Source: an uncultured Candidatus Saccharibacteria bacterium (GTDB taxonomy: Bacteria > Patescibacteriota > CPR2 > UBA1875 > CAIMLA01). Taken from it: DNA of 64,000 nt. Position numbers and translations under genes: made by a program. The stretch lies in NCBI GenBank assembly GCA_964501135.1, contig CAZCRI010000001.1, positions 64,393 to 128,392 of the forward strand, in the 5' to 3' direction. Below are positions 33,249 through 62,913 of the stretch, one piece after another. The notes below the pieces were generated by a model. The model ran no database searches. It was not told the DNA's origin and worked only from the letters and a program-made list of their open reading frames with translations. How positions within the stretch are numbered: position 1 is the stretch's first letter; every line of letters starts with the position of its first letter.

Positions 33249-33270
33249 GTGCCATTTGCGGGGCAATGCC

Positions 33271-33648
33271 TTAGCGGCGAGTGTTCTGGAGCGGGAGCTT
33301 GTATCCCTTGTACTCCTCGATGGAGATGTATCCGGGGTGTTCGGCGCCAGGTCCAGTTGTTGCCACCAGACTCCCTGCCGGCAGCTGTAGGTCTCTCTGG
33401 GGCATAACAAGCTCTGCAGCCCCCTTGTTGGGGTAGAGGTTGTGTCCCAGTGAAACTGCCATCTGGAAGCGATTCCCTGTTGCGGTGACAAGAGTCATTA
33501 CTCTCTCGCCACCCTCAAAGGTGGTTCGTACGATTCTCGAAACTCCCCAGTAGCGGATGTTTCCCTTCTGGTTGAGTACGATGGCGTAACTCTTCCTCGG
33601 TGCGTTGGCAGGGACCTTCATTTTCTTGCCGTTGCGCCGTTTCGTCAT
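33271..33648 (-). CDS. Hypothetical protein (high-GC orphan)
   Basis: 125-aa ORF with a basic N-terminus and no recognisable motifs. G+C is visibly elevated against the flanks. Confidence 0.4.
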   Translation of the reverse strand: MTKRRNGKKMKVPANAPRKSYAIVLNQKGNIRYWGVSRIVRTTFEGGERVMTLVTATGNRFQMAVSLGHNLYPNKGAAELVMPQRDLQLPAGSLVATTGPGAEHPGYISIEEYKGYKLPLQNTRR

Positions 33649-33753
33649 GATGTCCCTCCTTCGGGACGAGGTTGGAATGAGCTGAGATATTGTATAACAA
33701 AAATAGACTTTTGTAAAGTCTATTTAAGTAAGTTCTTATTGATTTAGGGTTAC

Positions 33754-35079
33754 TTAGTTTAGTTCAGTTGAGACAACGGATACAATATTCGAAACAGCAG
33801 CTTCTGCTGCTTCTTTGGTAGCGGCCTCGGCCATCACGCGGACCAATGGTTCGGTTCCGGAAGGGCGAACGAGGATACGTCCCTCATTGGCGAGCCTAGC
33901 CTCTTCCTGGTGGATAACATCCTGTACAGCTGTGTTTGTAGACAGCTCTGATTTTTTTGCGGCCGGTACATTAATTAAAACTTGCGGATATTTACGCATT
34001 ATTTTCGTAAGCTCACTCATTTTTTTGCCACTTTCTTTTAGTGCTGCAGCGAGTTGCAGAGCTGTGACGAGTCCATCTCCTGTGGTGTTGTGTTCAAAAA
34101 AGACAATGTGCCCAGATTGTTCGCCTCCAAAGGTAGCGCCTGTTTTTTTCATTTCCGTAAGCACATAGCGATCACCAACGTCGGTTTTAACTAGTTGGAT
34201 TCCTTGCTTGGCCATTGCCTTGTCCAGCCCCATGTTAGCCATAACTGTAGTAACGACGGTATCGTTTGCGAGTTTACCTTGATCTTTCAGGTGACGGGCA
34301 CAAATCGCCATGATGTAGTCGCCGTCGATATTTTCCCCATTCTCATCAACTGCGAGTACGCGGTCTGCATCACCGTCGTGAGCAAAGCCAAAGTCGGCAT
34401 TGGTCTTGCGCACTAGCTCAGAGATGGGCCCTAAATTTGTCGAGCCGCAATTCACGTTTATGTCGTCTCCAGTGAAGCTTTCGTTGATAGCGTGTACATC
34501 TGCCCCAAGCACACGAAAAGCCTCGGGAGTGGCTCTATATGCCGCACCATGGCCACAATCTATCGCTACCGTGAGGCCAGAAAGATCTCCATGGATGGTA
34601 CTGACCGCATGGCTGGTGTAATGTTTAGTGGCTTTGGCCATCTGGGTCGCTTTGGCTGTGTTTGTAGGAATATCCTTTGGATTTAGGTTTAAGACAAAAT
34701 CTTCGATTTTTGCCTCTTCAACATCAGAAAGTTTTCCTCCAGCGGAGTTGAAAAATTTGATCCCGTTATACTGTGGTGGGTTATGGGAGGCGGAGATTAC
34801 GATACCGCCGGAAGCCCCGGTTTCTTTTAGTAGAAAAGCGATAGCTGGTGTTGGGATAACTCCGCAACTTACAACCTCTATTCCTTGGGCGCAAAGGCCT
34901 GCAGTGACAGCCTGTTCTAGGTCTTCGCCACTTCCTCTGGTATCGCGTCCAATAATTATAGTTCCTTTACTATTGGCCAGGAATTTGCCAGCTGCAAATC
35001 CAAGTTTAGTGGCTAGCTCTAGGGTGAGCTCGGAATAGGCAATACCACGGACCCCATCTGTACCAAAAAGATTACCCAC
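33754..35079 (-). CDS. glmM: Phosphoglucosamine mutase GlmM
   Basis: The active-site Ser motif GIVISASHNP and the N-terminus MGNLFGTDGVRG are typical of GlmM. Confidence 0.9.
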   Translation of the reverse strand: MGNLFGTDGVRGIAYSELTLELATKLGFAAGKFLANSKGTIIIGRDTRGSGEDLEQAVTAGLCAQGIEVVSCGVIPTPAIAFLLKETGASGGIVISASHNPPQYNGIKFFNSAGGKLSDVEEAKIEDFVLNLNPKDIPTNTAKATQMAKATKHYTSHAVSTIHGDLSGLTVAIDCGHGAAYRATPEAFRVLGADVHAINESFTGDDINVNCGSTNLGPISELVRKTNADFGFAHDGDADRVLAVDENGENIDGDYIMAICARHLKDQGKLANDTVVTTVMANMGLDKAMAKQGIQLVKTDVGDRYVLTEMKKTGATFGGEQSGHIVFFEHNTTGDGLVTALQLAAALKESGKKMSELTKIMRKYPQVLINVPAAKKSELSTNTAVQDVIHQEEARLANEGRILVRPSGTEPLVRVMAEAATKEAAEAAVSNIVSVVSTELN

Positions 35080-35584
35080 GTCTTTCTCCCAGTAGTTCGC
35101 GGGCCTTCTCGATGAAGAGGAGGTCTCTTTCGTGGATAAAAATACTTCTTGGACCTGTAGGATGCTCTTTTTCGATTGTATTTACGGCATCAGAAAGCGG
35201 CATCCACTCAAGGGAGAAATCCTCGGCGATTTCCTTTTCGGTAAATTCTGGTTCGCATACTTTGTTTGTTAACTCTGCAAGATAGCAGTAACTAAGCTGA
35301 AGGAATTCAAATTCATCGCGATATTCAATGATTAAGCCAATTTCGTCAGTAACCTTGATTTCGCAGCCTGTTTCTTCCAGCACTTCTCGTTCGAGGGCCT
35401 CCATAATTGACTCGCCAGGATCGATGCCCCCGCCGGGGAGTTTGTGCATGCTGTATTTACCAACAAGAAGAAGAGCGATCTCGCCTTTGTCGTTTAAGAC
35501 TACCGCCCTTGCTGCTCTTCGTATTTTGTAAGATTGTCTTTTCTCTTCGTGATTTCCGGGATAAATTTCTTTGATTAGTTCCAT
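35072..35584 (-). CDS. NUDIX hydrolase
   Basis: NUDIX box GGGIDPGESIMEALEREVLEETG. The ATG at 35584 is preceded by TATAAT only ~8 nt upstream, suggesting a leaderless transcript. Confidence 0.8.
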   Translation of the reverse strand: MELIKEIYPGNHEEKRQSYKIRRAARAVVLNDKGEIALLLVGKYSMHKLPGGGIDPGESIMEALEREVLEETGCEIKVTDEIGLIIEYRDEFEFLQLSYCYLAELTNKVCEPEFTEKEIAEDFSLEWMPLSDAVNTIEKEHPTGPRSIFIHERDLLFIEKARELLGERRG

Positions 35585-35632
35585 GTGATGATTATAACAT
35601 ATGAAATATTGAATTATTTCAGATAAAGAAAG

Positions 35633-35650
35633 CGCCCCGATTCCGGGGCA
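35633..35650 (-). terminator. GC hairpin GCCCCGgaatcGGGGC downstream of the GreA-like gene
   Basis: 6-bp GC stem. Confidence 0.4.
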
Positions 35651-35686
35651 CATTCTTCGTGCTTCGAAATTGGGGCGTGGTGGCTG

Positions 35687-36196
35687 CTATTGCAGCCAGT
35701 CTACCGTGTAGGTCGTGTTGACGATACGGACAGTGTCGCCAGCTCGCTTGCCCATGAGAGCTTCTGCGAGCGGAGTCTCCTGCGCGAGAACCGTGATGGT
35801 AACCGGATCTGTCCCCGGGATCGGGACGTAGTCGATCGTCTTCCCGGTCTTGCCAGGAACAATGAAGGCCAGCACGTCTTTCTCTCGGCCAGTACTTGCA
35901 CTGAGCATAGCCAACGTATAGAACTGGACGGTATCGTGCTTGTTCTTGTGCCACCCTTCAGGCATGAGCGACATCTCGCCGAGCCCAGCCTGGAACTTGG
36001 CAACGGTGTCGCGTGCCGCCTGAGCCATAGCTTGCTGCTGGCTCCGGTTTGTGTCGCTTGCGGACTCCATCTTGCTGGGGTAGCCGGCGGCCTCCTTTTC
36101 GAAATAGCGGACCTGATCCTCTGCTTCTGCGACGAGCTCCTTGATCGCAACGAGTGCGAGATCAAAGATTGCTGCCTTGTCGAATTCCGGAGTCAT
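35687..36196 (-). CDS. GreA/GreB-family transcription elongation factor-like protein
   Basis: The C-terminal sequence PGTDPVTITVLAQETPLAEALMGKRAGDTVRI resembles the Gre FKBP-like C-domain. AGGAGG RBS before the ATG at 36196. The ORF is high-GC. Confidence 0.55.
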   Translation of the reverse strand: MTPEFDKAAIFDLALVAIKELVAEAEDQVRYFEKEAAGYPSKMESASDTNRSQQQAMAQAARDTVAKFQAGLGEMSLMPEGWHKNKHDTVQFYTLAMLSASTGREKDVLAFIVPGKTGKTIDYVPIPGTDPVTITVLAQETPLAEALMGKRAGDTVRIVNTTYTVDWLQ

Positions 36197-36370
36197 CTCC
36201 GAAACCTCCTGTCGGCTAGGTGATGGAAACAATGAACGATAAGCATTTTCACATAGATTTGAGTTTTTGTCAATGTTTATTTTTCTTCAGTTTTATTCCT
36301 TATACACTTTCTTTATATTCCCGTAGAATGCTTTCATGCTGAAGTAATAAGACTGAAGCTGCTCCTTGAA

Positions 36371-36378
36371 GGGGGGGG
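36371..36378. repeat. G8 homopolymer tract at the 5' end of the radical SAM gene
   Basis: GGGGGGGG immediately upstream of the candidate GTG start at 36387, inside the alternative TTG-initiated frame. Confidence 0.5.
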
Positions 36379-36386
36379 AAGTTAAG

Positions 36387-37349
36387 GTGAACACTGCCAA
36401 TGATTCACTCCGAGTTCGTGTTACACCGTATTGCAACCTGAATTGTGGTTTTTGCCACGAGGAAGGCGGCGATGCATCCTGCCAGGTCAGTCTCGACCAG
36501 ATTGTCGCGGCAACCGAGTTCGCTTGCAAGCACGGCTTCTGCAAGTTCCACCTGACAGGTGGAGAACCCACACTGCATCCTGGCATCATCGATATCGTTC
36601 GTATCATTACCGGTGCCGGGTACCCTTGTGGTATCACCACGAACGGGCAGTTCCAGCCGAAGCTCCTCTCGGAGCTGAGGGAGGCTGGAGTTACTAGCCT
36701 CAACTTCTCTGTTCATACAGTCGACGCTTCTGCCTGGGCTCAGGTCCAGCAGAGTACTGACATCAAGAAGGCGGAAATCCAGATAGCTCGTGCAATCACG
36801 AATATCCGGGAGTCTGTCGCACTTGGAATCAGGACGAAGGTCAATATCGTGGTCGGCGACGACCCCGAAATGGCCATCGGCGTCATTGAAGAACTGCGAG
36901 AGTCTGGCGTAGAATACAGACTTCTCAACGTTCTCGGCTCGAATAACTCGCTCATCAGCATCACCGACGTTCTCGGCCATTACGATGCCGAGATGGTCGA
37001 AGAGACGCGAGTTATGGGTTCGAGCCAGTACAGGGCAACCTATACCAGCACGGTCGGTAACCTTGTGGTGAAAGAAATCCACCAGCACAGGGAACTGACT
37101 GTCTGCAAGGGTTGTAAGGAGAACTGCCAGGAGGGCTTCTACGGTATCCGGATTATCCCGATGGATGACTTGCTTCACGCACGTCTTTGCGTTCATCGTA
37201 CTTCCGAGACTACCCTGATGCCCTTGGAGCAGTTCGAGACCAGCCCGCAGCTCGATGCCATCAAGGCAAGTGGCGGTCTCAACAACGAGCACAAGGAGGT
37301 GTACCATGGTAGCACCTACTTCTCCAGAGCATCCATTTGTGGTGCTTGA
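36387..37349 (+). CDS. Radical SAM enzyme of the MoaA/viperin superfamily, with a C-terminal Cys cluster
   Basis: CNLNCGFC (CxxxCxxC) motif. FHLTGGEPTLHP and ITTNGQ...SLNFSVHTVD are MoaA-like. The C-terminal sequence CKGCKENC...ARLC suggests an auxiliary Fe-S cluster. The start could be the TTG at 36366 or the GTG at 36387. Confidence 0.8.
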   Translation: MNTANDSLRVRVTPYCNLNCGFCHEEGGDASCQVSLDQIVAATEFACKHGFCKFHLTGGEPTLHPGIIDIVRIITGAGYPCGITTNGQFQPKLLSELREAGVTSLNFSVHTVDASAWAQVQQSTDIKKAEIQIARAITNIRESVALGIRTKVNIVVGDDPEMAIGVIEELRESGVEYRLLNVLGSNNSLISITDVLGHYDAEMVEETRVMGSSQYRATYTSTVGNLVVKEIHQHRELTVCKGCKENCQEGFYGIRIIPMDDLLHARLCVHRTSETTLMPLEQFETSPQLDAIKASGGLNNEHKEVYHGSTYFSRASICGA

Positions 37350-37866
37350 GTCGAGGGACTACTGCGGCAAGACAACGGTCAGCACAGAGCTGACTGCACT
37401 CCTCAGGGCTACCTTGGTCAAGACTCCAATGGAGCCCGTCGCACAGTTCAGGGAAACTTACGACTGTTGCGAGAACTACGACGCTCGGTTCCTGTACTAC
37501 TTGAGCACTCTCTGCTTGGCTTCCAAGGCCATCGCGGAGGCCCTCAAGGTTGGACCGGTCGTCTGCGACCGGTACATCCACTCGGCCGTGGTCTACCACC
37601 ACGTTCTCGGAGTGGACACCTCGATGGTCGATATCGAGAAACTGGGGTTGGTTGTCCCTACCCTCACGGTTTGCCTCACCGCTAACAACGAAGTTCTTGC
37701 AAAAAGGAAGCGGGAGCGGGGCGAGGTCAGGCGAGACAACATCGAGGGTACGGTTGGCTTGCTTGACCGCGTCGACCAGATGATGCTGTCTGAGATACCA
37801 ACCCATATCGACACCAGCTATACAACGCCCCTCGAGGCAGCTCGGCTCATCGCCGCCATGCTCTAG
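37306..37866 (+). CDS. Thymidylate-kinase-family (d)NMP kinase
   Basis: GGAGGTG RBS followed by an ATG. P-loop FVVLESRDYCGKTTV. The sequence VCDRYIHSAVVYHH is a DRY-type motif of the Tmk family. Confidence 0.6.
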   Translation: MVAPTSPEHPFVVLESRDYCGKTTVSTELTALLRATLVKTPMEPVAQFRETYDCCENYDARFLYYLSTLCLASKAIAEALKVGPVVCDRYIHSAVVYHHVLGVDTSMVDIEKLGLVVPTLTVCLTANNEVLAKRKRERGEVRRDNIEGTVGLLDRVDQMMLSEIPTHIDTSYTTPLEAARLIAAML

Positions 37867-37952: not shown

Positions 37953-38465
37953 ATGAATATTGAAGTAGAAAAGAAGTTCGAAATATCAGATTACAACACC
38001 GTGAAAGGGGAGATAGAGGCTCTCGGTGCCAATAAGGTGTCTACTACTAACGATGTCGATGTTTATTTTGTTGTTCCTCAGATAGTGCCGAACACCAGAT
38101 ATCTCAGAGTTAGAACAAAAAATAGTAAAGCGACCATGGCATACCATGAGGTAATAAATGACGTCGAGACCAAAGAGTGGGAGTCTGATGTCACGGATGG
38201 GGATATTGTCAAAACTATTATTGGCAAACTTGGGTTCGAAGAAGATGTTACTGTGAACAAAACTAGAGAGAAATATATTCTTGGTGGTTCAGAGATTCTT
38301 GTTGATCATATAGAGGGACTTGGATATTTTCTAGAGATTGAATCTCCAGACGAAGAACAACTAGACAGTATCGCAAATAAAATCACTTTGGGTTCTCAGG
38401 TATCTGGACAGGGGTACCCCGATATGGTCAGAACCAAGAAGAATCATGAGACAAGCACTAAATAG
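37953..38465 (+). CDS. CYTH-domain protein (triphosphate tunnel metalloenzyme; class IV adenylate cyclase/triphosphatase family)
   Basis: The N-terminal sequence EVEKKFEI matches the ExExK signature. Confidence 0.6.
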   Translation: MNIEVEKKFEISDYNTVKGEIEALGANKVSTTNDVDVYFVVPQIVPNTRYLRVRTKNSKATMAYHEVINDVETKEWESDVTDGDIVKTIIGKLGFEEDVTVNKTREKYILGGSEILVDHIEGLGYFLEIESPDEEQLDSIANKITLGSQVSGQGYPDMVRTKKNHETSTK

Positions 38466-40164
38466 CAACTCTTTAAGATGTAATGACAAAACTCTTTACC
38501 GGAGTTTTTTTGCAAACTATTCTTTTGTAGTCTCATCCCCAGGAGGCGCAATACTAGCTGGAACCTTCACGGATCATGTGGGCGGCCCAGGGCTCCATCA
38601 AAAGGTTCCGCTAAGGAACTATCTCGGTTTAACCCTTATCGACAAAGAGGAGATAGTCTTTGAGAACTTTGGAACCTATGATAGTTTCTCGGGCTCCTTT
38701 GTCCTTTTTGATGTTAAGCAGGAACATATTGATAAACTAAAGACTTTACAGACAATGATTTCTGATACCCTCGGAAAGAAGATAGGCCTAAAGGTAGGGA
38801 TATTAAATGAGTTACCTAGAAGGACGGGCCTGAACAACCCAGGTACAAACGCCGCTAATTTATCGGTAGCCTATTTGCTGCTAACAGGCCAGATAGAGCT
38901 TTCTGATCTTAAAGACTTTCAGAATATCTCTGCTACGTTAGAAACGGATAAGAGGGATTTGTTAGTATCGGTTGCTAAGCGCTTCCATTCCATTTGGTTA
39001 GGAAGAAAAAGTGCGGGATTTGGGGTTTTGGCAAACATGGTTTCTTTTCCGGACATACTTGTTTACAATCCAAGAGCTAATTACCCAGTACTGCCCTTGA
39101 GAAATATATTTAAGCCAGAGGTCGCGGGGGAGTTGCCTTTTGATATTGTGATAATTGGTACTTCCGATAGATACGATATTGATTTTTCCTTGAGAAGATA
39201 TGACGAGGTCGGCGATTTATTTTCCATTTCTGACAGCGACGTAAAACAATTTGAAGAAGCATTTAAAATTGATGAGCCTAGAGCAAAAAACTTCTCTGTC
39301 GAGTTACGAAAAAGTTACTTTCAGGCGGTAAGCGAAACCGGCCTTGCGGCAGCAATTGTTGCGGGTAAATTTATTGAGAACCCAAATATCGAGAATCAAA
39401 AGCTCTGTTTGCAGGTTTTTAATAGCTCTTACGATATGATCAATTTATTTGGTCAGAACTTTTCCAGGAAAGAGAAAGTCCATTCTTTTATCAGGAAATA
39501 TTTCCATGAAGTTCAGCCGGACATACCTTTTGCACTTACAACTGGTATTACAAATAATCTAATATTAGTTACCCCCAAGGATTCAACAAGGGAATACCTC
39601 GATAAACTTATTGAATACGTGAACAGTAAAATTAGTTTTGAAATTTCGTTGCCTTTTATTTCTTGGCTTGACGAAAACGATGAGGAAGGGGTGGTGGTTG
39701 AAAAGTGGGACAAGATTCGTCTCCAACCCACATATTTACCAAGTGGTTGTTTGTACCTTTATAGCTTAGCGGTTATGGAGACGAACGTTTCCTTGGTTGC
39801 AATAGACAACAGAGAGACACTTGAGACTGAGTACGACATCTTGTTGGATGAAGACGATAAACGTATATATGTAAATGGCAAACGAGTTACATCGAGGGAA
39901 TTGCCAACCGTTGCGGCCACAATTAACCTATTTACGTGTTTGTTTTCAGCTTCTGACCTTACCGTTTCATCTTTTGATTTGCCTGACCAATCATACTTTA
40001 TTGATCGAAACGAACTTCAGAGCAAGATTGTAAGTCCACTCAAAATATATGTGGAAAAAACGCTGGGGAAACACCTAAACCTAAAAATTAGCGGTAATAT
40101 TGCTGACTACAAAGTTACTTTGTTTTCTTCTGATCTAAAAATTGGTCTTATAAAAAGAATTTAA
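38446..40164 (+). CDS. GHMP-kinase-like N-terminal domain protein with a long C-terminal extension
   Basis: SSPGGAILAGTFTDHVGG resembles GHMP motif I (APGKVILFGEHAVV). LPRRTGLNNPGTNAANLSVA resembles the ATP-binding motif PxGSGLGSSAA. 572 aa. Confidence 0.5.
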   Translation: MRQALNSNSLRCNDKTLYRSFFANYSFVVSSPGGAILAGTFTDHVGGPGLHQKVPLRNYLGLTLIDKEEIVFENFGTYDSFSGSFVLFDVKQEHIDKLKTLQTMISDTLGKKIGLKVGILNELPRRTGLNNPGTNAANLSVAYLLLTGQIELSDLKDFQNISATLETDKRDLLVSVAKRFHSIWLGRKSAGFGVLANMVSFPDILVYNPRANYPVLPLRNIFKPEVAGELPFDIVIIGTSDRYDIDFSLRRYDEVGDLFSISDSDVKQFEEAFKIDEPRAKNFSVELRKSYFQAVSETGLAAAIVAGKFIENPNIENQKLCLQVFNSSYDMINLFGQNFSRKEKVHSFIRKYFHEVQPDIPFALTTGITNNLILVTPKDSTREYLDKLIEYVNSKISFEISLPFISWLDENDEEGVVVEKWDKIRLQPTYLPSGCLYLYSLAVMETNVSLVAIDNRETLETEYDILLDEDDKRIYVNGKRVTSRELPTVAATINLFTCLFSASDLTVSSFDLPDQSYFIDRNELQSKIVSPLKIYVEKTLGKHLNLKISGNIADYKVTLFSSDLKIGLIKRI

Positions 40165-52115: not shown

Positions 52116-52149
52116 ATCATTTCTCCGAAACTATTATACCCTAGTATTA

Positions 52150-53082: not shown

Positions 53083-53103
53083 AAATATTATTATATCAAA
53101 AAA

Positions 53104-53203
53104 CGTCTTAGCAGATAAAGTTTTCTACGTCATTAATAGAAATAAGCTACCTTGCGGCAGCTTATTTAGTAGGTTCTATTTGGCGAAGCGGGAGGCGCTG
53201 GAG
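53104..53203 (-). repeat. Intergenic module copy C (full length)
   Basis: GCTTAGCAG...TTTTCTACGTCATTAATAGAAATAAGCT-hairpin-AGCTTATTTAGTAGGTTCTATTTGGCGAAGCGGGAGGCGC. An extended -10 TGATATAAT lies 7 nt before the ATG of 52687-53082. Confidence 0.7.
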
Positions 53204-53692: not shown

Positions 53693-53712
53693 ACGCTTAT
53701 TTTATCACAAAA

Positions 53713-53813
53713 AGCGCTTAGCAGGTTAACTGTTTTGCGTCATTAATAGAAATAAGCTACCCCAAGGTAGCTTATTTAGTATGTTCCATTTGGCGAGGCA
53801 CTCAGCGCGGGAA
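53713..53813 (-). repeat. Intergenic module copy D (full length)
   Basis: Hairpin variant AAGCTACCccaaGGTAGCTT, a perfect stem. Extended -10 TGATAAAAT. Confidence 0.7.
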
Positions 53814-54296: not shown

Positions 54297-54316
54297 GTGT
54301 AAATCTTATCAAAAAA

Positions 54317-54420
54317 TGTGCTTAGCAGATAGCTAAAATTGCGTCATTAATATAAATAAACTACCTTGCGGCAGCTTATTAGACTTGTTCCATTTGGCGA
54401 ACCACTCAGCGCAGGAACCA
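54317..54420 (-). repeat. Intergenic module copy E (full length)
   Basis: Hairpin variant AAACTACCttgcGGCAGCTT. Extended -10 TGATAAGAT. Confidence 0.7.
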
Positions 54421-54585
54421 ACTATGAATATGAAAATATTATGAAAAGCGCCCCAACCAACTTGTGGGTGGAGCGCAGCCAGGACCAGGATGAAATCCTG
54501 CTCGAACTGACTTTGTACCATGTGAATTTAGGACCTTGGTACGAGATCCTGTCCGCTCAAATTTGAGCGCTTCTTGCTGCCCGAA

Positions 54586-54687
54586 CTATTTCTTCGGTTC
54601 GGGCGTCTTCGTGCCCGGCTCGGGCTTCTCCTTGACGGTGATCGCGGACACCTTCTGGGCGTCCAAGACCGCTTTGCACTTAGACAT
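54586..54687 (-). CDS. 33-aa Lys-rich peptide with a single Cys (candidate precursor peptide)
   Basis: GGAAGGAGGTG RBS 3 nt upstream of the ATG, which overlaps the stop of the YkgJ-like gene. Peptide MSKCKAVLDAQKVSAITVKEKPEPGTKTPEPKK. Confidence 0.35.
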   Translation of the reverse strand: MSKCKAVLDAQKVSAITVKEKPEPGTKTPEPKK

Positions 54688-55258
54688 GGTTGTCACCTCC
54701 TTCCCCAACTAGGATATCGATTGAGGCGATCGCCTCGAATGAGTTGGGACCGTCGGGGAAAGACGATATCTCGTCGATTTCCGCGTACTCATCGGTGAGA
54801 CTCCGGATCGTTCCCGGGGAAACGGAACGAAGAATCTCGATGACTGTGCGGAAGAAGGACATCCTCTTTTCGCCTTGAAGCTCTCGGGAGAACTGGCAGT
54901 CCTCGTGCAATACGAGCTGCACTATGCCTTCGTACATGGCGAACCCGACAGGGTACATCCGGCATACGAGAGGCCGAGAGTTGTAGATTGTACACAAGCC
55001 TTCGGCTCGTAGTCTGCAAGGTGGCTTTGGCTTGTCGATCAGGATGTGACCGTCGACTTCTTCGAAGGAGTGCAGGAAGTGCAGTCCTTTGTTGATCTCG
55101 ACTATCGGTACACCCAGCTCGTATAGAGATTCGGCTTCCTCTCCTAGAAGCCAGACGTAGCCTTCACAGTCGTGGTCTTTGCAGTCGGCACAAATCATGC
55201 CGATTGTCTCGTAGATACGCCCAAACGCGTCGTATAGCGTTCTTAAGTCCTTGTTCAA
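54680..55258 (-). CDS. YkgJ-family (UPF0153, CxxCxxCC-type) putative Fe-S/zinc cluster protein
   Basis: CADCKDHDC near the N-terminus. PPCRLRAEGLCTIYNSRPLVCRMYP matches the family signature C.IY..RP..CR.YP. AGGAGG RBS before the TTG start. Confidence 0.6.
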   Translation of the reverse strand: MNKDLRTLYDAFGRIYETIGMICADCKDHDCEGYVWLLGEEAESLYELGVPIVEINKGLHFLHSFEEVDGHILIDKPKPPCRLRAEGLCTIYNSRPLVCRMYPVGFAMYEGIVQLVLHEDCQFSRELQGEKRMSFFRTVIEILRSVSPGTIRSLTDEYAEIDEISSFPDGPNSFEAIASIDILVGEGGDNHV

Positions 55259-55260
55259 CT

Positions 55261-56172
55261 TCAGCCTCCTTTCAGAATCGGGCAGCGTGAGGTGTCGTTG
55301 AGGCAGATACTGATTCCCGAGGCGTTGTATACCGCGTAGCGGCAGGACCGGGGTATCTGCTGTGTAGTGTGGTAGAGCGTGTGGTCGTTCATAAAATCCT
55401 CATCGAGTAGCGCCCCGATCAAAGACTCGGGACTGTGCAGAGCAAGCTCTGCACAGGGGTATACCACCCCTCTGTAATCGATGTAGGCAGAACGGGTCGA
55501 GATCTCGCAGGAGCAATCGAGGGGACTGCTACCGAGCTCGAGGGTCGGATCCAACTGAGAGCGAATGATTCTCAGCTTTTCAGCTAGGTCCATTCCACCA
55601 AGTCCGAGGTAGCTATTCTTACTGGCCCTGCCTTCGCAGTTGATCTCATTGAAGTGGAAACTACCAACGCCCAACCCGATCAGCTCCAGGACTATTTCGT
55701 CCAGGCTTCTAAGGTTGAGTGAGTTGATAGTCAGATAGACGGTAACAGGTTTTCCGGTTTCGACTATCTTTGACAGGGTTGCAACAGTCTTGCGGAACGA
55801 TCCCGTTCCTCGAATCAGATCGTGAATACGTTCGGTTCCTTCGACACTGACTCCAATCTGGTCGATGAGACCTTCGTTGATGACTGAAGTCGTTGCCTCT
55901 TGGTAGGTCCCGTTGGTGATGATGCTGGTCGAGATACCGAGCGTTTTCGCTTGCCGTAGCAGGAGGTGAAGGTCCTTCCGGGTGAAAGGTTCCCCGCCCG
56001 TGATAAACACCCTCTGACATCCCAGCGAAGCAATCTTCCTCAGGATCTGAACAGACGCTTCGGTGCTTGTCTCACCGGTTTCTAGATCACCGATGATGCA
56101 GTGGGTGCATTGCAGGTTGCAGTTGCGGGTGATCTCCCAGTGCCAGTCTCGGAGTGTCGGGGGGTTATCCAT
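55261..56172 (-). CDS. Radical SAM / SPASM-domain enzyme (second of a pair)
   Basis: CNLQCTHC (CxxxCxxC), GGEP, and a C-terminal Cys-rich region (C..C..C...C) consistent with SPASM/twitch auxiliary clusters. Confidence 0.8.
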   Translation of the reverse strand: MDNPPTLRDWHWEITRNCNLQCTHCIIGDLETGETSTEASVQILRKIASLGCQRVFITGGEPFTRKDLHLLLRQAKTLGISTSIITNGTYQEATTSVINEGLIDQIGVSVEGTERIHDLIRGTGSFRKTVATLSKIVETGKPVTVYLTINSLNLRSLDEIVLELIGLGVGSFHFNEINCEGRASKNSYLGLGGMDLAEKLRIIRSQLDPTLELGSSPLDCSCEISTRSAYIDYRGVVYPCAELALHSPESLIGALLDEDFMNDHTLYHTTQQIPRSCRYAVYNASGISICLNDTSRCPILKGG

Positions 56173-57469
56173 GATCCGGCCCTGCGAAGTCGATCGCACC
56201 AACTTGTGCGAGCAGGGAGACGAGTCTCCTCATCTCGTTGGTTTCGACCCGTTTGGCGTTCAGCTCGATGAGCTCAGCCTCAGAGGTGATGCCGCCGAGA
56301 ATCTGTTTGAGGATGTGGATGCACAGGGCATCAATCTCGATCGTTTGATACCGGGTGACCAGGTAGGCTTCCTTATGGGCCGTGTTAATCCTGGCGTACG
56401 AGTTGGGTCGGAAAGACCGCATCTCGGACAGAAAGTCCGGCGATGTGGTCTTAGTGGGCAGCTCGGCGTTATTCGTGATAGTCAGCGCTTCGTTGCCCCT
56501 TACAGCGTAGTCTACGCTGTAGGTTTGCGCCGAGTTCGCGTCGACCTTGCACCCGCAAAGGCATTCGGTCAGGACGTCGCAACCGACGCACGGTCTCTCA
56601 ATCCATCCAAGATCTCTGAACTCCGAGAGTTCCGGATTGCTCCAGATGGTTTCGAAGTCCTCGGTCAGGATGTTGCCGTATACCCGTTCTGATTGGTTGC
56701 AGGTACGGACGTTGCCGTTGGGGTTGACGGCGGCGAAGGTGACTCCAGCGCCGCAGTCCGCGGTCATCTGCTCGGGGATCAGGCGATCGTCGAGACAGAA
56801 GGGAATTGCAGTACCCCAACCGACGGGGATGTTGAAGTCGTCGCGACCCTGGATCATCTGACCCAGCGCAATGCGGAACTGCTCGGTCGAGGGCTTCATC
56901 TGCGTAGAGCTTTGGCTTCCTAAGCCACCGTCTTCGTATCTGTCTACAAAGACGCTTTCCATGCCCATCTCCTTGGCCAGACGGATCAGATCGTACATCT
57001 GGTCGAAGTTCTGGGCCGTGAGGACCGGGATGCAGCGAACGTCGAATCCTCGCTCGACGTATTTCATGATCGAGCTCGTGGCCTGCTTGAAGCTCCCGGC
57101 CTTGTTCGTAAGGTAGTCGTGAGTATTCTCCATGCCATGGAGCGGTACGCCGATGCACGCGAGCTTGGTCGAGAGGCCATCGAGGTACACTTGGCCGTTC
57201 GTAACGATGGTCACGGATGACTGTGTAGACAGCAGCTCGATGTACTCGTTGAGCTTTACTGTCCCTAGGAGACTGGGTTCACCTCCGATGAGGTAGACGT
57301 GGGGGATCTTCGATGCGTGAACCCTGGCGACGATCTGGTCTATGATGGCCGGGTCGATCCTGCTGTTGCGGTTGGGGTTGTAGCAGAACTTGCACTGCTG
57401 GTTACACGCGTAGGTGGTTTCGATGTGAACGAGATGCGGAACACTCGGTGCGATAATCTGGCAGGGCAT
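56165..57469 (-). CDS. Radical SAM / SPASM-domain enzyme (first of a pair) with a ~100-aa C-terminal extension
   Basis: CNQQCKFC, GGEP, and the SPASM cysteines CGAG...C...PCVGCDVLTECLCGCK. The extra C-terminal alpha-helical-looking region could be an RRE-like domain. Confidence 0.8.
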   Translation of the reverse strand: MPCQIIAPSVPHLVHIETTYACNQQCKFCYNPNRNSRIDPAIIDQIVARVHASKIPHVYLIGGEPSLLGTVKLNEYIELLSTQSSVTIVTNGQVYLDGLSTKLACIGVPLHGMENTHDYLTNKAGSFKQATSSIMKYVERGFDVRCIPVLTAQNFDQMYDLIRLAKEMGMESVFVDRYEDGGLGSQSSTQMKPSTEQFRIALGQMIQGRDDFNIPVGWGTAIPFCLDDRLIPEQMTADCGAGVTFAAVNPNGNVRTCNQSERVYGNILTEDFETIWSNPELSEFRDLGWIERPCVGCDVLTECLCGCKVDANSAQTYSVDYAVRGNEALTITNNAELPTKTTSPDFLSEMRSFRPNSYARINTAHKEAYLVTRYQTIEIDALCIHILKQILGGITSEAELIELNAKRVETNEMRRLVSLLAQVGAIDFAGPDHG

Positions 57470-57474
57470 CGCGG

Positions 57475-57780
57475 TTACCTCCCGTTTCTCTTCATGACTT
57501 CAAGGATGGTGTCGAAGTTGTCGTTCTCCGCGGACTTACACCGCTTCACGGCACCACACTTGGTGCATTTGAAGGTAATGATGTAGCCCAGTCCTTTCGT
57601 CTCGATCGAGATGGGCTCCATGAGCCCCTGGCATTCTGACTGTCGATCTCCAGGATTGATATCCACGTGTTTGCTGTGAAGACACTCGGGGCAGTGGTTA
57701 GTATAACCATTGCCGACGGTTGTGTGTCCACAGTGTTCGCAGATAAAATCCTCGATGTTACGAGTAAATCGCTTACTCAT
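57475..57780 (-). CDS. RNHCP-domain zinc-ribbon protein
   Basis: CEHCGHTTVGNGYTNHCPEC matches the xNHCP motif between two CxxC pairs. A second knuckle is CTKCGAVKRC. AAAGGGAG RBS before the ATG at 57780. Confidence 0.55.
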   Translation of the reverse strand: MSKRFTRNIEDFICEHCGHTTVGNGYTNHCPECLHSKHVDINPGDRQSECQGLMEPISIETKGLGYIITFKCTKCGAVKRCKSAENDNFDTILEVMKRNGR

Positions 57781-57949
57781 CGAAGACACTCCCTTTCTGG
57801 GGTTTGGATAGTTTTCAAGGAACCGTTCTGTTAACAGGTTCTCTATGATATAGAGCACCAGTTAACCATGATTTATACCACTTACAGAGCGTTATGTCAA
57901 TCTAAATCAGGCAGTAAGCGCTGACGGAGATCGTTTGCTACAAGGTAAA

Positions 57950-57977
57950 AAAGACGGTATCTTTGATACCGTCTAGA
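57950..57977 (-). terminator. Rho-independent terminator after the GNAT gene
   Basis: GACGGTATCaaagaTACCGTC hairpin followed by a T-run on the minus strand. Confidence 0.6.
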
Positions 57978-57985
57978 AAGTCATA

Positions 57986-58444
57986 TTATCGACATTTGAT
58001 ATTTTTTACATACACCGCACAGGGATTTCCGGGACTCCATCCAGGGTAGGGTTCTATCACGTCTACTTTTACAAATCCATTCTTTTCATAAAAAGATCTA
58101 GTGCTTACATAGGGTTCATATTCAGCGCTCTCGTCGAGCGTTTTTACTTCGATATAGATTTTTTCTGAATATTCTTTTTCGATGTGCTCGAGTAGTTTAG
58201 TCCCAAGTCCGGAGCGTTGGCGGTCTCTTAATACTGCGAAGTGCTTAATCTCCACAGTTTCAGAGGACTTGTCTTCTAGGATCACGAAGGCTTGGACTCC
58301 GGCATCCTCTACCAAGTACGTCGGTAAACTTAATATATGTTTAGAAATCTCTGACAATTCTTTTACATCAAACCATTCCGGCAGTTCTTTTGCGATAGCA
58401 ATGCAGGAGTCGAAATCTTCTTTTCTTGCCTTTCTAATTTCCAT
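57986..58444 (-). CDS. GNAT family N-acetyltransferase
   Basis: QRSGLGTKLL acetyl-CoA-binding motif. Confidence 0.8.
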   Translation of the reverse strand: MEIRKARKEDFDSCIAIAKELPEWFDVKELSEISKHILSLPTYLVEDAGVQAFVILEDKSSETVEIKHFAVLRDRQRSGLGTKLLEHIEKEYSEKIYIEVKTLDESAEYEPYVSTRSFYEKNGFVKVDVIEPYPGWSPGNPCAVYVKNIKCR

Positions 58445-58465
58445 GTCTAAATGATACCACGAAAA

Positions 58466-58565
58466 TACTTAGCAGATTAATCGAATTGCGTCATTAATAT
58501 AATAAGCTGACCGAAGTCAGCTTATTAAGTATGTTCCATTTGGCGAGCCGGAGGGCGCCAAGGCC
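58466..58565 (-). repeat. Intergenic module copy F (full length)
   Basis: Hairpin variant AAGCTGACcgaaGTCAGCTT, with compensatory changes against copies C-E. Extended -10 TGGTATCAT. Confidence 0.7.
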
Positions 58566-58622
58566 ATAGTTTGAACTTAAATGAGACAAATGAGACACCT
58601 AGCAGGTAGTCTTTTAGTTGTT

Positions 58623-59162
58623 CTAAATGATACCCTGACTGGACAAGACGCCAAGTAGGCTCATGATAAATATCAAACAAATGCCAATGATTGCCAAGAC
58701 ATTCCATACTTTCTTTGGCTTCTTATACCAACAGAAGATTCCCGTAGAGAATAATGCTGAATAGATTAGCATTTCTGGAAGCCCAATTAGGTGAGCATGC
58801 CATGGGATTATAGTATAGAGAACCCCTTCAAATGAGCCAGGCCCAGGTAGTTGTGGCGCAAAGAGCGTAAACCCAACTATCAGCATAAATAAATACAGCC
58901 AACCGTTCTTCTTTTCTAGGAAAATAGAACGAAATGGGAAAAGAAATACTGACATAAATAATCCAAGTATAATTTGTAATGACGGCCCCATAGCCACAAT
59001 TGCGGAGTCAATGGGTCGCATTAGCGATGAGAGTACATCAGAAGAAAATAACTCTTTGTAGCCCATAAAGATAAGAGCAAAGATTCCTGCTACAAAATAC
59101 GTTATTGTATGCAGAGCAACGATACGCCAACTGAACTCTAGAAATTCCTTTTTATTTTTCAT
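58623..59162 (-). CDS. Polytopic membrane protein (hypothetical)
   Basis: 179 aa with 5-6 TM helices. AAGGAGG RBS. Confidence 0.4.
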   Translation of the reverse strand: MKNKKEFLEFSWRIVALHTITYFVAGIFALIFMGYKELFSSDVLSSLMRPIDSAIVAMGPSLQIILGLFMSVFLFPFRSIFLEKKNGWLYLFMLIVGFTLFAPQLPGPGSFEGVLYTIIPWHAHLIGLPEMLIYSALFSTGIFCWYKKPKKVWNVLAIIGICLIFIMSLLGVLSSQGII

Positions 59163-59197
59163 TGTTTCCTCCTTGTCAAGATAATCATAACATAAAG

Positions 59198-59300
59198 TGC
59201 TTAGCAGCTAGAGTATTTTGCGTCATTAATAGAAATAAGCTGACCGAAGTCAGCTTATTAAGTATGTTCTATTTAGCGAAGCGGGAGACGTCAAGACTGC
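59198..59300 (-). repeat. Intergenic module copy G (full length)
   Basis: Same hairpin variant as copy F. GCTTAGCAG and GCGTCATTAATAGAAATAAGCT are conserved. Confidence 0.7.
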
Positions 59301-59304
59301 CCAG

Positions 59305-60190: not shown

Positions 60191-60267
60191 TGGCGATCCA
60201 GATGGGACTCGAACCCACGACCTCCGCCGTGACAGGGCGGCGCTCTAACCAGCTGAGCTACTGGACC
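60191..60267 (-). tRNA. tRNA-Asp (anticodon GTC), 3' CCA encoded
   Basis: The reverse complement is GGTCCAGTAGCTCAGCTGGTTAGAGCGCCGCCCTGTCACGGCGGAGGTCGTGGGTTCGAGTCCCATCTGGATCGCCA. Anticodon stem CCGCC/GGCGG, anticodon loop CU-GUC-AC, GTTCGAGTC T-loop. Confidence 0.8.
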
Positions 60268-60914: not shown

Positions 60915-61283
60915 GTGAGTTATCACCTGGAGATCGAGAGTCATGTCAGTGAGTCGGGGACGATTCATGAGGTGTGTCTCGCCGGGCTGTACAACAGCGC
61001 GGATATCGAGGACCTCCTACGGCTTCGGGATCGCTTGAACATGAGAGCCTCTGGTGACGTCATCATCGACGTTACGAAGGCCTACATTGACACTACCGCT
61101 GAGGGCGCTTTTGCCTCCATCGGTCGCGATCTCGCAAAGCACGGAAGGATGCTCCACCTGGTAGTCGGGGAGCGTGGCCGGCCCAACATGGCCGACATCA
61201 ACGCCCGCTTTCAGGGCATTTCGTTTCACAAGGACATGCGCTCGGCCATGGAATCGGCCGGCGCGGTCACGGTCGCGGCCTAG
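60915..61283 (+). CDS. STAS-domain-like protein (anti-sigma-factor antagonist-like); hypothetical
   Basis: ~120 aa with a pattern of alternating hydrophobic residues and the sequence DVTKAYIDTTAEGAF. The call is weak. High G+C. Confidence 0.35.
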   Translation: MSYHLEIESHVSESGTIHEVCLAGLYNSADIEDLLRLRDRLNMRASGDVIIDVTKAYIDTTAEGAFASIGRDLAKHGRMLHLVVGERGRPNMADINARFQGISFHKDMRSAMESAGAVTVAA

Positions 61284-61405: not shown

Positions 61406-61861
61406 ATGGCTGAAGAAACTAAGAAACAAGAAAAAGTAACCCCGGAAACCAAACAGATGGCGACATTAGCAGCTGCTTTTGTGCTGGTATTTGTGCTTGG
61501 CGGAGGCCTAGGTTATGTAGGTGCCACTGCACTCAAGGGACAGAACGGAATTGCCCGAAGAAATCAGATTACTGCAAATGCATTCGGCAGTGAAGATAGT
61601 ACTTTTGGCCGAGGTATGATGGGCGGCCGGGGCGGCATGGGACTTGGTAGACGCCAGTCTGGTGAAGTGACCGCGATTGATGGCAACAAAATTACCATTA
61701 AGCTACCAAATGGTAATACGGAAACCATCACAGTAAGCGATAGCACCGCCTATAAAACGGTAACGACGGGCACCAGGGATAGTGTAAAAGTTGGTAGCAC
61801 CATTGCCGTAACAGGCGTGGACACTAGTAGTAGCGCAGTGACGCAGATTACTGTTCAGTAA
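61406..61861 (+). CDS. Membrane-anchored/secreted hypothetical protein (DUF5666-like beta-rich C-domain)
   Basis: N-terminal TM, a Gly/Arg/Met-rich linker, and the C-terminal sequence GEVTAIDGNKITIKLPNGNTETITV. Confidence 0.4.
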   Translation: MAEETKKQEKVTPETKQMATLAAAFVLVFVLGGGLGYVGATALKGQNGIARRNQITANAFGSEDSTFGRGMMGGRGGMGLGRRQSGEVTAIDGNKITIKLPNGNTETITVSDSTAYKTVTTGTRDSVKVGSTIAVTGVDTSSSAVTQITVQ

Positions 61862-61877
61862 TTAACTAGTTTCTTCT

Positions 61878-61905
61878 TTATGACAAGCTCGGCACCGCCG
61901 AGCTT
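61878..61905 (+). terminator. Rho-independent terminator
   Basis: CAAGCTCGGCaccgCCGAGCTTG followed by TTTTGTT. Confidence 0.7.
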
Positions 61906-61916
61906 GTTTTGTTATA

Positions 61917-61958
61917 AAAAAGAAGCAGCCCCCATCGCAAGTAGCAATGGGGGCTGCG
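61917..61958 (-). terminator. Rho-independent terminator for the convergent minus-strand gene
   Basis: GCAGCCCCCAtcgcaagtagcaaTGGGGGCTGC hairpin, flanked by an A-run on the plus strand. Confidence 0.6.
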
Positions 61959-61976
61959 CGTTTCTGTCCGCGGGAG

Positions 61977-62831
61977 TTACGGGGTGGGCGTTGTAGCCAC
62001 CGACCAGTGGTTCTGGTACTTCACCGGTATCTGGTAGGCCGCCTCGGGATAGTCGACTTGGATATGGAAGTCCGTTTCGCTTGCTTTCGCAGCCTCGCTG
62101 TTGTAGATCTCAGCGTTCAGGTCACGCTCCACGGCGAGCGAATGGACTTTGCTCCACACCAGTCTCCGCTGTTCGGCAATCAGCGCCGCCGGGATGGTAC
62201 TGCTGTAGGTCGAACCCTTGTCGAGGTCTGCAATCTCGCCATCCAGGTCGGACACCTTACGACGCATCTCGTTGAACCAGATGGCATCCTTGTCAAGCGC
62301 CGGGACGTAGATGGTTGTGAAGATATCTTGATCCATCTCGTCCATCCAGAAGAGTTTGTCTATAGCTCGCAGACGCGTCTTCGAGACCTCGATGCGAGGA
62401 TTGCGCTCGTCTTTGGAGTAGTAGACGGATGGCGAACCGCTGACTTCGACCGATCTGCCGTTGATATTGATAGTCGCCCACCGTTTATCCTCACTCACGC
62501 GCGAGGCCACGTAGTAGGGCTTTCCGTGGAGAGGCAGGAGTTTCTGGGTCGTTTTGATGTTTGGTATCGTGCATACGACCACGATGGCTGTGACAAACAG
62601 GGCGAGCATCAGAAAGATGGCAGAGCCACTCGCAGCCAGGATGACGTCTGACTTCAAGGTAGCTCGCGTCCAGTCAGGGTCACCCCTGTGCACGAAGTAT
62701 GCACGAGCCCCGCCAATAGCCGTGAGTAGTACCCAGAGAGCAAGCGCGACGTGAAGAGCGGTGATATGGATGCCAAGAATGTACACGGTGTATCCTTCCG
62801 CCGATGGATTTTGGGAAACGCGCACCAGCAT
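61977..62831 (-). CDS. Membrane protein (hypothetical, high-GC)
   Basis: 284-aa ORF with two TM helices near the N-terminus. Confidence 0.35.
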   Translation of the reverse strand: MLVRVSQNPSAEGYTVYILGIHITALHVALALWVLLTAIGGARAYFVHRGDPDWTRATLKSDVILAASGSAIFLMLALFVTAIVVVCTIPNIKTTQKLLPLHGKPYYVASRVSEDKRWATININGRSVEVSGSPSVYYSKDERNPRIEVSKTRLRAIDKLFWMDEMDQDIFTTIYVPALDKDAIWFNEMRRKVSDLDGEIADLDKGSTYSSTIPAALIAEQRRLVWSKVHSLAVERDLNAEIYNSEAAKASETDFHIQVDYPEAAYQIPVKYQNHWSVATTPTP

Positions 62832-62913
62832 TTTACTACTACAGAGCGATTCTGTCCATATTTGCTCGCTATTTTCTCAGCAAAAACTCAGCTTTCGGAG
62901 TAAAATAGAGAGT

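Follow-up and report, generated by a model that had tools for sequence, protein, structure and literature searches.

Are sharply bounded GC-rich blocks in an otherwise AT-rich genome the traces of genes received from a GC-rich donor? This question is raised by a stretch of 64,000 nucleotides (hereafter the window; contig CAZCRI010000001.1, positions 64,393 to 128,392, assembly GCA_964501135.1) from an uncultured bacterium labeled as Candidatus Saccharibacteria. Between positions 33250 and 62850, six GC-rich blocks, or islands, hold orphan genes, radical S-adenosylmethionine (SAM) systems and an acidic micro-protein unit, as a first reading of the sequence alone had noted. Atypical G+C content is usually read as a sign of recent transfer and, for an epibiont, as a hint of its host's identity; the sequence-only reading offered transfer from an actinobacterial host as a natural explanation, should the organism be an epibiotic CPR bacterium. 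Here this inference fails. On balance, and with moderate confidence, we consider the islands to be accessory transcription units of CPR (candidate phyla radiation, Patescibacteria) that belong to a persistently GC-rich codon class, and not genes of an actinobacterial host.

Composition and borders of the GC-rich islands

The G+C content is 0.461 across the whole window, 0.447 for all DNA outside the six blocks and 0.433 for the non-block part of positions 33250-62850. The blocks reach 0.558 (33271-33648), 0.549 (35655-37910), 0.529 (48600-50400), 0.545 (54570-57870), 0.596 (60900-61300) and 0.563 (61960-62830). The discrete high-GC blocks that had been described by eye are thus real, and at 53-60% their elevation lies in the lower part of the 55-60% first estimated. 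Their outlines required revision. Block 48600-50400 consists of two units, 48663-49394 and ~49990-50400, with low-GC DNA between them, and block 35655-37910 is interrupted by an AT-rich divergent-promoter gap (36233-36365, G+C 0.32). Three low-GC patches had also gone unlisted, at 37953-40164, 53204-54296 (G+C 0.35) and 59305-60078, with a gene G+C content at third codon positions (GC3) of 0.31-0.39 and a G+C content of 0.35-0.40; the mosaic therefore departs in both directions from a background of ~0.46. We refer to the resulting GC-rich units, in order of position, as islands 1, 2, 3a, 3b, 4, 5 and 6.

In 300-nt windows, the standard deviation of G+C content is 0.051, nearly double the binomial expectation of 0.029. 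Third codon positions account for most of the excess of the islands: 11 island genes have a GC3 of 0.64-0.75, and 59 others average 0.44 (s.d. 0.059; Mann-Whitney p=1.7e-7). Third-position C rises from 0.23 in the background to 0.34-0.44 in the islands, and third-position G from 0.21 to 0.26-0.30. First and second positions likewise gain G+C, GC1 going from 0.51 to 0.56 and GC2 from 0.38 to 0.42. The first 33 kb of the window, encoding a type IV pilus cluster, large surface proteins and housekeeping genes, are even in composition. Against them, the pooled-island tetranucleotide signature, normalized for composition, correlates at r=0.33, compared with 0.71±0.03 (minimum 0.59) for size-matched sets of non-island genes. 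The islands resemble one another instead: among three groups (island 2, island 4 and the orphans), tetranucleotide correlations are 0.59-0.66 and those of relative synonymous codon usage 0.62-0.84, versus -0.29 to +0.04 for codon usage against the background. The composition, tetranucleotide and codon profiles that had been suggested as a check thus find the window non-uniform and the islands deviant.

The enrichment is restricted to coding DNA, intergenic DNA averaging 0.41, and the G+C steps fall within ~80 nt of gene starts or stops. Islands 1, 3a, 3b and 6 each lie between a promoter-like and a terminator-like site, and most islands are closed by a terminator hairpin or a repeated intergenic module, in agreement with the first description of their borders. 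Each block is a self-contained transcription unit, either a single gene or one operon, and the blocks sit in the hypervariable half of the window, which includes a gene array next to a tRNA-Asp gene. Long antisense open reading frames (ORFs), which had been thought to occur in the blocks alone, are enriched there and are also found elsewhere: those of at least 80 amino acids (aa) occur at 1.31 per kb in the islands, where they span 62% of the length, and at 0.49 per kb in the rest, where they span 16%. They track GC3-rich coding sequence, in keeping with their interpretation as a by-product of high G+C content.

The same compositional contrast in diverged relatives

Islands 2, 4 and 3a are those that can be compared in the contigs of relatives (designated by L numbers). 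Presence or absence in relatives, another proposed check, differs among them: islands 2 and 4 are present (island 2 in L086 and L091, island 4 in L003 and L174), and island 3a is missing at the orthologous site of L086, a close relative. L086 (GCA_041738615.1) is syntenic with positions 33.7-48.1 kb of the window over 14 genes, with 97% amino acid identity for the ABC-F protein and 91% for the NUDIX and SDR proteins.

Island 2 is a divergent gene pair. One arm encodes a 181-aa protein whose C-terminus is weakly GreA/Rnk-like (2a, 35687..36232, minus strand), and the other a MoaA-like radical-SAM protein of 327 aa (2b, 36366..37349, plus strand; PF04055, E=3e-21) followed by a thymidylate-kinase-like protein (2c, 37255..37866, plus strand; PF02223), which probably starts at the ATG near 37306. 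Low-GC partner genes follow on the plus strand (37953..40164), encoding a CYTH protein (170 aa, Pfam CYTH) and a 572-aa protein that matches no Pfam family; both are syntenic with the trio in relatives. In the window, GC3 is 0.69, 0.65 and 0.72 for the 181-aa, radical-SAM and kinase genes and falls to 0.39 for both partners. The corresponding values are 0.70, 0.60 and 0.70 versus 0.34 (CYTH) and 0.44 (572-aa) in L086, where genes neighboring the trio have a GC3 of 0.34-0.55, and 0.57, 0.58 and 0.61 versus 0.30 and 0.22 in L090/L091. In L088, from Woesebacteria, which has neither the 181-aa nor the kinase gene, the radical-SAM gene is at 0.47 and the CYTH gene at 0.35. The 181-aa orthologs are 72% (L086) and 46% (L090/L091) identical in amino acids to the window protein.

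Island 4 behaves in the same manner. This five-gene operon (54441..57900, minus strand) encodes an RNHCP protein, two radical-SAM proteins, a Cys-rich protein and a micro-peptide, and is adjoined by a low-GC gene for a GNAT acetyltransferase (57986..58444, minus strand; Pfam; GC3 0.39). From the GNAT gene to the operon, GC3 steps from 0.39 to 0.62-0.75 in the window, from 0.32 to 0.56-0.68 in L003 and from 0.30 to 0.56-0.66 in L174; the adjacency is kept in both relatives. Since the GC3 step recurs in orthologs at the same junction, the contrast is tied to the gene families of these two largest islands.

How old is this contrast? In the flanks, fourfold-site identity between the window and L086 is 0.37 (n=1209; at conserved residues) against a random expectation of 0.26. 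In a two-state GC/AT treatment, this amounts to a decay factor of ~0.35 per lineage for a deviation in G+C content. The G+C content at fourfold sites (GC4) is today ~0.62 in the islands and 0.44 in the flanks, and neutral amelioration would require a GC4 of ~0.94 at the split of window and L086. Fourfold-site identities of window to L091 and of L086 to L091 are at the random level, so that no starting composition could leave the contrast observed. The same GC3 step at the same junctions despite near-saturated synonymous sites makes the contrast old and not a fresh scar. A single old transfer followed by neutral decay would therefore appear to fail for islands 2 and 4, as far as the modest numbers of sites compared can show. 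Protein identities yield the same branching order for the trio genes and their neighbors, for which a shared vertical backbone is the simplest reading.

Homologs of the two largest islands in CPR bacteria

The 434-aa radical-SAM protein of island 4 has hundreds of strong homologs, among them unnamed metagenomic proteins; those with names come from Parcubacteria, Berkelbacteria, Staskawiczbacteria, Nealsonbacteria and 'Patescibacteria group', plus one Caldithrix. In a plasmid collection, its best matches reach at most 26% identity, a generic radical-SAM similarity. The 327-aa radical-SAM protein of island 2 has ~11 close homologs among 5.8 billion proteins, the sole named one from a Woesebacteria metagenome-assembled genome at 60% identity, and from these sequences its family is narrow and of CPR type. 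No Actinobacteria-labeled protein was found among the close matches of either protein. For these two islands, homologs thus lie in the lineage of the flanking genes, the finding that had been named in advance as one that would contradict host-to-epibiont transfer. The organism does have the look of CPR/Patescibacteria, as had been supposed; the more specific label of Saccharibacteria is not supported. GlmM was tried as a lineage marker and rejected as uninformative, its best matches in a genome scan and an exhaustive representative search being ~50% identical and from Firmicutes and Actinomycetota.

The whole island-4 operon is conserved in L001 (74% identity), L003 (88%), L004/L005 (61%) and L174 (~77-79%), and a metagenome scan with an alignment of 38 homologs yielded 80 loci. 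In the 42 loci with enough flank, operon GC3 tracks flank GC3 (r=0.75), and the difference between the two has a median of ~0 (Wilcoxon p=0.27). The operon is therefore not GC-rich everywhere by nature, and we rejected the idea of an intrinsic excess in favor of a clade-specific one. At least four clades of the protein tree have an operon GC3 of 0.66-0.78 amid flanks of 0.34-0.54 (window/L003; L108; L111/L117/L120/L122; L164/L169/L170/L172), and the GC3-rich stretch there is exactly coextensive with the operon genes.

Nucleotide homology between the window and L003 consists of one block (58474..54441) that ends at two flanking copies of the intergenic module. Within this block, the GNAT genes agree at 66-72% of nucleotides and the operons at 76-92%, and fourfold-site identity is 0.63-0.76 (n=383) in the operon versus 0.32 in the adjacent GNAT gene (n=38, one gene). 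Either the operon was exchanged more recently than the GNAT gene, or its synonymous sites evolve several-fold slower.

Evaluation of alternative explanations

The units with their borders, the CPR-type homologs, the conserved GC3 steps, the block-wise homology that ends at unit borders and a synonymous divergence that is lower in the operon than in the gene beside it are what support the interpretation of the islands as CPR accessory units. Such units would pass between CPR lineages, or recombine among them, with each transcription unit kept whole. Their GC-rich third positions could be kept by re-exchange faster than amelioration or, alternatively, by a GC-favoring force, which might be biased gene conversion at often-recombining accessory loci or selection on synonymous sites. 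A bolder proposal is that the GC3-rich operons are not transfer scars at all, their third positions being actively held GC-rich against AT pressure and inherited across Patescibacteria, with the RNHCP operon reaching this state independently in several clades; we offer it tentatively, as possible though rather improbable.

Several results weigh against accessory units exchanged within CPR. The four orphan islands (1, 3a, 5 and 6) are assigned to no donor, having no detectable homologs. None of the operon loci combines a GC3 of at least 0.66 with equally GC-rich flanks, and with neither large island found at any locus in an equally GC-rich context, the donor pool is not demonstrated. The low synonymous divergence of the operon could reflect selection on codon usage instead of recent exchange, the flank in that comparison being one gene with 38 sites. 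When the changes between window and L003 were polarized with L174 and L001 as outgroups, the outgroup base was G/C at ~52% of positions in either site class, a saturation that defeated the polarization of AT-to-GC against GC-to-AT changes. No integrase or transposase Pfam domains occur among the scanned genes of 33-64 kb, where the sole nuclease-like gene encodes a small GIY-YIG protein (60379-60696), and no island-flanking direct repeats were found in the window. Finally, the comparison with relatives covers ±10 kb around each locus.

Could the genes instead be vertical, with GC3 kept high gene by gene through synonymous selection or a local GC-biased process, and no transfer needed? The same step at the same junction in three to four lineages despite near-random fourfold identity, the identical branching order of the trio and its neighbors, the one codon class common to all islands and the lowered synonymous divergence of island genes would all follow, slow synonymous-site evolution being known for strongly codon-biased genes; the absence of a GC-rich donor context among the 80 loci and the AT-rich promoter DNA inside island 2 agree as well. 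We nevertheless judge this unlikely, because island 3a is present here and missing in a close relative, the orphans act as accessory genes, the block of GNAT gene and operon sits in three different neighborhoods and the operon lacks a GC3 excess in many low-GC CPR clades. The shift of GC1 and GC2 also speaks against it, and the GC3 of 0.34 in a probable pilin gene (19800-20330) would, if that gene is highly expressed, argue against a codon choice linked to expression. Recent one-off acquisitions from donors of ~55-60% G+C, inside or outside CPR, would chiefly concern islands 1, 3a, 3b, 5 and 6. Sharp borders, an atypical oligonucleotide signature, orphan proteins, the missing island 3a in L086 and the nearby tRNA-Asp gene are what such events would leave, and, as codon-position G+C scales with genomic G+C, the shifts at all three positions would resemble genes equilibrated in a ~55% G+C genome. 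This too seems an improbable account: mobility genes and attachment (att) repeats were not found, and neither was a donor homolog in viral, plasmid, phage or Joint Genome Institute (JGI) metagenome collections. It fails for islands 2 and 4, whose contrast is older than the split of lineages with saturated synonymous sites, and the orphan islands share the codon class of those two.

Transfer from a high-GC actinobacterial host to an epibiotic Saccharibacteria-like cell can draw on the composition of the islands above background and on the uncertain origin of the orphans, and a donor with a GC3 of ~0.94 just before the split of window and L086 could numerically leave a GC4 of ~0.62. L091, however, keeps the contrast at random synonymous identity, and a single transfer before its split would need a GC4 above 1. 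A GC3 of 0.64-0.75 with modest shifts of GC1 and GC2 is unlike genomes of 65-72% G+C, and the homologs of the large islands are CPR-type and syntenic within CPR genomes, with the same junctions and the same GC3 step. Phage and plasmid collections hold many actinobacterial phages and plasmids, yet gave no matches beyond the generic radical-SAM similarity to plasmid proteins. A survey of 125 aquifer Patescibacteria genomes with hundreds of genomic islands places 83% of inferred transfers within the phylum and counts Actinomycetota as donor in 1 of 131 events (PMC12455944). We conclude that host-to-epibiont transfer, as first proposed, is highly improbable. To an assembly or binning chimera, with GC-rich fragments joined into a low-GC contig, we give next to no probability, even though the contig is metagenome-derived and its borders are sharp. 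Independent Logan assemblies of run ERR3839025 match the window at 100% identity, L093 over 33126-35048 and L092 over 60222-61369, reproducing the junction of island 1 with glmM and the sequence of island 5, and thereby two island junctions. Other samples and assemblies (L003, L086/L087, L090/L091 and L174) have equivalent low-GC/high-GC junctions, and the borders fall at promoters and terminators, not at arbitrary points.

Relation to described genomic islands

The window is an instance of the intra-phylum exchange described in the part of the Patescibacteria survey used here: the homologs of its islands are CPR-type, the islands are small and many, and no non-CPR donor is evident (PMC12455944). 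To what that part of the survey describes, the window adds a GC3-rich codon class and orthologous islands that keep their contrast across lineages, the point being that the contrast is common to diverged relatives.

Classical genomic islands, as in the amelioration model of Lawrence and Ochman, resemble the blocks in their sharp edges, in deviant G+C content, codon usage and oligonucleotides, and in a content of accessory or orphan genes, placed in a variable region with a tRNA gene close by; one of the blocks is missing in a close relative. Unlike those islands, the blocks exceed the genome in G+C content instead of falling below it, neither an integrase nor att repeats were found at them, and the two largest keep their contrast in near-saturated relatives, which neutral amelioration does not predict. 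Because the contrast is common to diverged relatives at the same junctions, composition detectors would call old, lineage-typical genes 'foreign'; and because the island genes have their nearest relatives in other CPR bacteria, composition carries no host signal. How the contrast persists, through re-exchange or through a GC-favoring force, is the sole part of this analysis with real potential for novelty. If its persistence is actively maintained, the operons would provide a compact natural test of GC-favoring forces in reduced genomes.

A radical-SAM operon with a conserved micro-peptide

Island 4 is transcribed from a promoter that can be read directly from the sequence (TTGACA-17-TATAAA, ~57900-57872) to an equally legible terminator (54476-54441), all on the minus strand. 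Its genes encode an RNHCP zinc-ribbon protein (57783-57475; Pfam), a 434-aa radical-SAM/SPASM protein (57469-56165; PF04055, E=8e-14; PF13186, E=3e-8), a second radical-SAM protein of 313 aa (56202-55261; Pfam), a CxxCxxCC-like Cys-rich protein of 192 aa (55258-54680) and a 33-aa micro-peptide beginning MSKCKAVLD (54687-54586; MSKCKAVLDAQKVSAITVKEKPEPGTKTPEPKK), the gene for which overlaps the stop codon of the 192-aa gene. Together with the GNAT gene, the operon fills exactly one slot between intergenic modules.

The micro-peptide ORF is conserved in ~60 loci among L001-L172, in all operon clades, and is mostly not called as a gene there. Its first ~21 residues follow the pattern MSKCKAVLD[SAG]xK[VI]xx[IL]x[VL]Kx[KR], after which comes a variable Lys-rich tail. 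Across the operon clades with the micro-peptide, the radical-SAM proteins are 48-88% identical. The micro-peptide looks like the substrate of a CPR-wide radical-SAM/SPASM system.

The operon is reminiscent of the PqqA/PqqE, MftA/MftC and sactipeptide clusters, with a SPASM radical-SAM protein, a second radical-SAM protein, small Cys-rich proteins and a micro-peptide of 25-36 aa. It differs from them in reaching no curated family cut-off: against curated systems (mycofactocin, PQQ, sactipeptide and others), the highest scores with NCBIfam models are 67-104 bits for cut-offs of 265-625, and the micro-peptide matches no NCBIfam model. It also differs from known radical-SAM/SPASM maturases in that an RNHCP protein belongs to the system and in that the peptide, with a single Cys, is conserved in its N-terminal 21 residues. 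For the annotation of CPR genomes, a by-product of this analysis is a widespread five-gene radical-SAM operon with a largely unannotated conserved micro-peptide.

A radical-SAM and kinase cluster with CYTH partners

The cluster around island 2 is conserved at 35687-40760 of the window, at 2694-9993 of L086, in L091 and at 9436-12089 of L088. Its order is 181-aa GreA/Rnk-like gene, MoaA-like radical-SAM gene, kinase gene, CYTH gene and 572-aa gene, followed by a second CYTH or a second kinase gene; the conserved GC3 step runs through it, at the boundary of kinase and CYTH genes. In L004, a set of radical-SAM, CYTH and ArgRS genes resembled island 2 and was rejected, as its radical-SAM protein is non-homologous and the 572-aa protein of the window is not an ArgRS.

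The 327-aa radical-SAM protein falls below every NCBIfam cut-off. It scores 108 bits with MoaA models (cut-off 325) and 50 bits with the viperin model NF038283 (cut-off 180), the MoaA models scoring higher, and PF06463 (Mob_synth_C) is absent from it and from its close homologs. A match to pVip in PADLOC spans the generic radical-SAM core alone. The kinase matches PADLOC PDC-M51B (E=5e-23) and the viperin-associated kinase VakA (E=3e-11) and has no phage match. Like pVip with its nucleotide kinase and the PDC-M51 systems, island 2 thus pairs a radical-SAM protein with a kinase that matches PDC-M51B and VakA, and CYTH triphosphate-binding proteins adjoin the pair. It differs in that its radical-SAM protein is nearer to MoaA than to viperin models and far below both cut-offs. 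The gene content suggests that the cluster may be a nucleotide-modifying, possibly defense-related, system.

Orphan and micro-protein islands

Island 1 (33271..33648, minus strand) is a stand-alone gene for a 125-aa orphan protein (GC3 0.66), preceded by a promoter-like site (33717-33689) and followed by two terminator hairpins (33247-33182). Island 3a (48663..49394, minus strand) is likewise a stand-alone gene, for a 243-aa orphan (GC3 0.68), between a promoter-like site at 49474-49446 and a terminator at 48639-48607. Island 5 (60915..61283, plus strand) encodes a 122-aa orphan (GC3 0.75), with no promoter or terminator identified. Island 6 (61977..62831, minus strand) encodes a 284-aa orphan with predicted N-terminal membrane helices (GC3 0.70), and has a promoter-like site at 62858-62830 and a 14-bp terminator at 61957-61925. 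An overlapping ORF on the plus strand (61947-62651) was taken as an antisense artifact and rejected.

All four orphans gave zero matches in Pfam, NCBIfam and PHROGs, and 8-mer-seeded scans found no relatives among viral or JGI metagenome contigs. The PDB held nothing useful for the 243-, 284- and 122-aa proteins, and phage and plasmid collections held no match for the 243- and 284-aa proteins, whose single-sequence AlphaFold models are too poor to use (predicted local distance difference test scores of 47.6 and 53.7, respectively). Because they share one codon class, the orphans compositionally resemble islands 2 and 4, whose affiliation is with CPR, a likeness that is suggestive only.

Island 3b (49990..50400, plus strand) is an acidic micro-protein unit with a promoter-like site at 49889-49916 and a terminator at 50355-50374. 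It contains a 44-aa acidic ORF (50178-50312, plus strand), which has GGGAGGAGG upstream and a strong Shine-Dalgarno sequence, as well as the acidic tail of an upstream ORF. Between islands 3a and 3b lies a gene for a 60-aa membrane micro-protein (49535-49717, GC3 0.64). The segment 49500-49836, comprising this gene and its upstream region, is 84.7% identical in nucleotides to positions 16755-17087 of L086, compared with 76% for the neighboring DUF2177 gene, and forms a conserved islet within a hypervariable stretch.

A module-punctuated gene array next to a tRNA-Asp gene

Island 4 belongs to an array of small co-oriented genes on the minus strand (50930..59302) split by a repeated module of ~120 nt. 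The array encodes DUF1801, RsgA, DUF3795, NUDIX, CPT-like kinase, 160-aa, 179-aa and 257-aa proteins in addition to the GNAT protein and island 4. The module follows nearly every minus-strand gene from 59.3 to 50.9 kb, with five full copies (59302-59182, 58567-58447, 54422-54299, 53816-53695 and 53206-53087; nhmmer E=1e-34 to 1e-37) and three partial ones (52686-52591, 52221-52158 and 50983-50930). Right behind the stop codon comes its conserved box, CGCTTCGCCAAATRGAAC, followed by an 11-bp hairpin in which 97.7% of cells are paired and three pairs are changed on both sides, indicative of covariation; a bulged outer stem is seen in two copies. After the hairpin come a U-rich tail, the conserved motifs TCTATTAATGACGCAA and CTGCTAAG and, near the next start codon, an extended -10 element. 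The module reads most simply as an intrinsic terminator joined to a promoter, and every array gene would therefore have its own promoter. It is absent from L001-L005 and L174, matches no known RNA and gave no match in viral contigs.

In L086, the module stands between entirely different genes (17938-19704). The content between the DUF2177 and RsgA genes is wholly different in the two genomes: the window has a GNAT gene, island 3a, the 60-aa gene, island 3b and a DUF1801 gene, and L086 has small ORFs, YtxH, racemase and 266-aa genes and GC3-rich pyrE- and pyrF-like genes. The latter (19906-21359 of L086), encoding a phosphoribosyltransferase and an OMP decarboxylase, have a GC3 of 0.76 and 0.78 and adjoin a module copy.

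GNAT, NUDIX, DUF1801, DUF3795 and CPT-like kinase genes are kinds typical of integron cassettes. The array resembles integron cassette arrays and CALIN (clusters of attC sites lacking integron integrases) in its small co-oriented genes of cassette-type families (GNAT, NUDIX, DUF1801, phosphotransferase), in the ~120-nt repeat with an imperfect hairpin after each gene, in a gene content that varies among relatives and in a composition that varies from unit to unit. It differs from them in that no integron integrase occurs among the scanned genes of the window, that the module is without the RYYYAAC/GTTRRRY core, GTTRRRY not being found in its sequence, and that it reads as a terminator followed by a promoter for each gene. 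A module-punctuated variable gene array is a second by-product for CPR annotation.

The tRNA-Asp(GTC) gene (60191..60267, minus strand) marks the upstream end of the array, with island 5 located 650 nt away, and is flanked by the GIY-YIG nuclease gene and an 18-bp hairpin (60088-60127). The module was considered as a tRNA-derived att site and rejected, since the 3' end of the tRNA-Asp gene (TCGCCAAAGTAAGCAAGATGGAAC) shares just TCGCCAAA and a displaced ATGGAAC with the module box, which may be coincidence.

Outside the islands, the first 33 kb contain a 1.3-kb duplication with 97.4% identity between its copies (8273-9587 and 11863-13177), which covers the 3' ends of two genes for large surface proteins. 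It holds two identical 92-aa ORFs, at 9304-9582 and 12894-13172.

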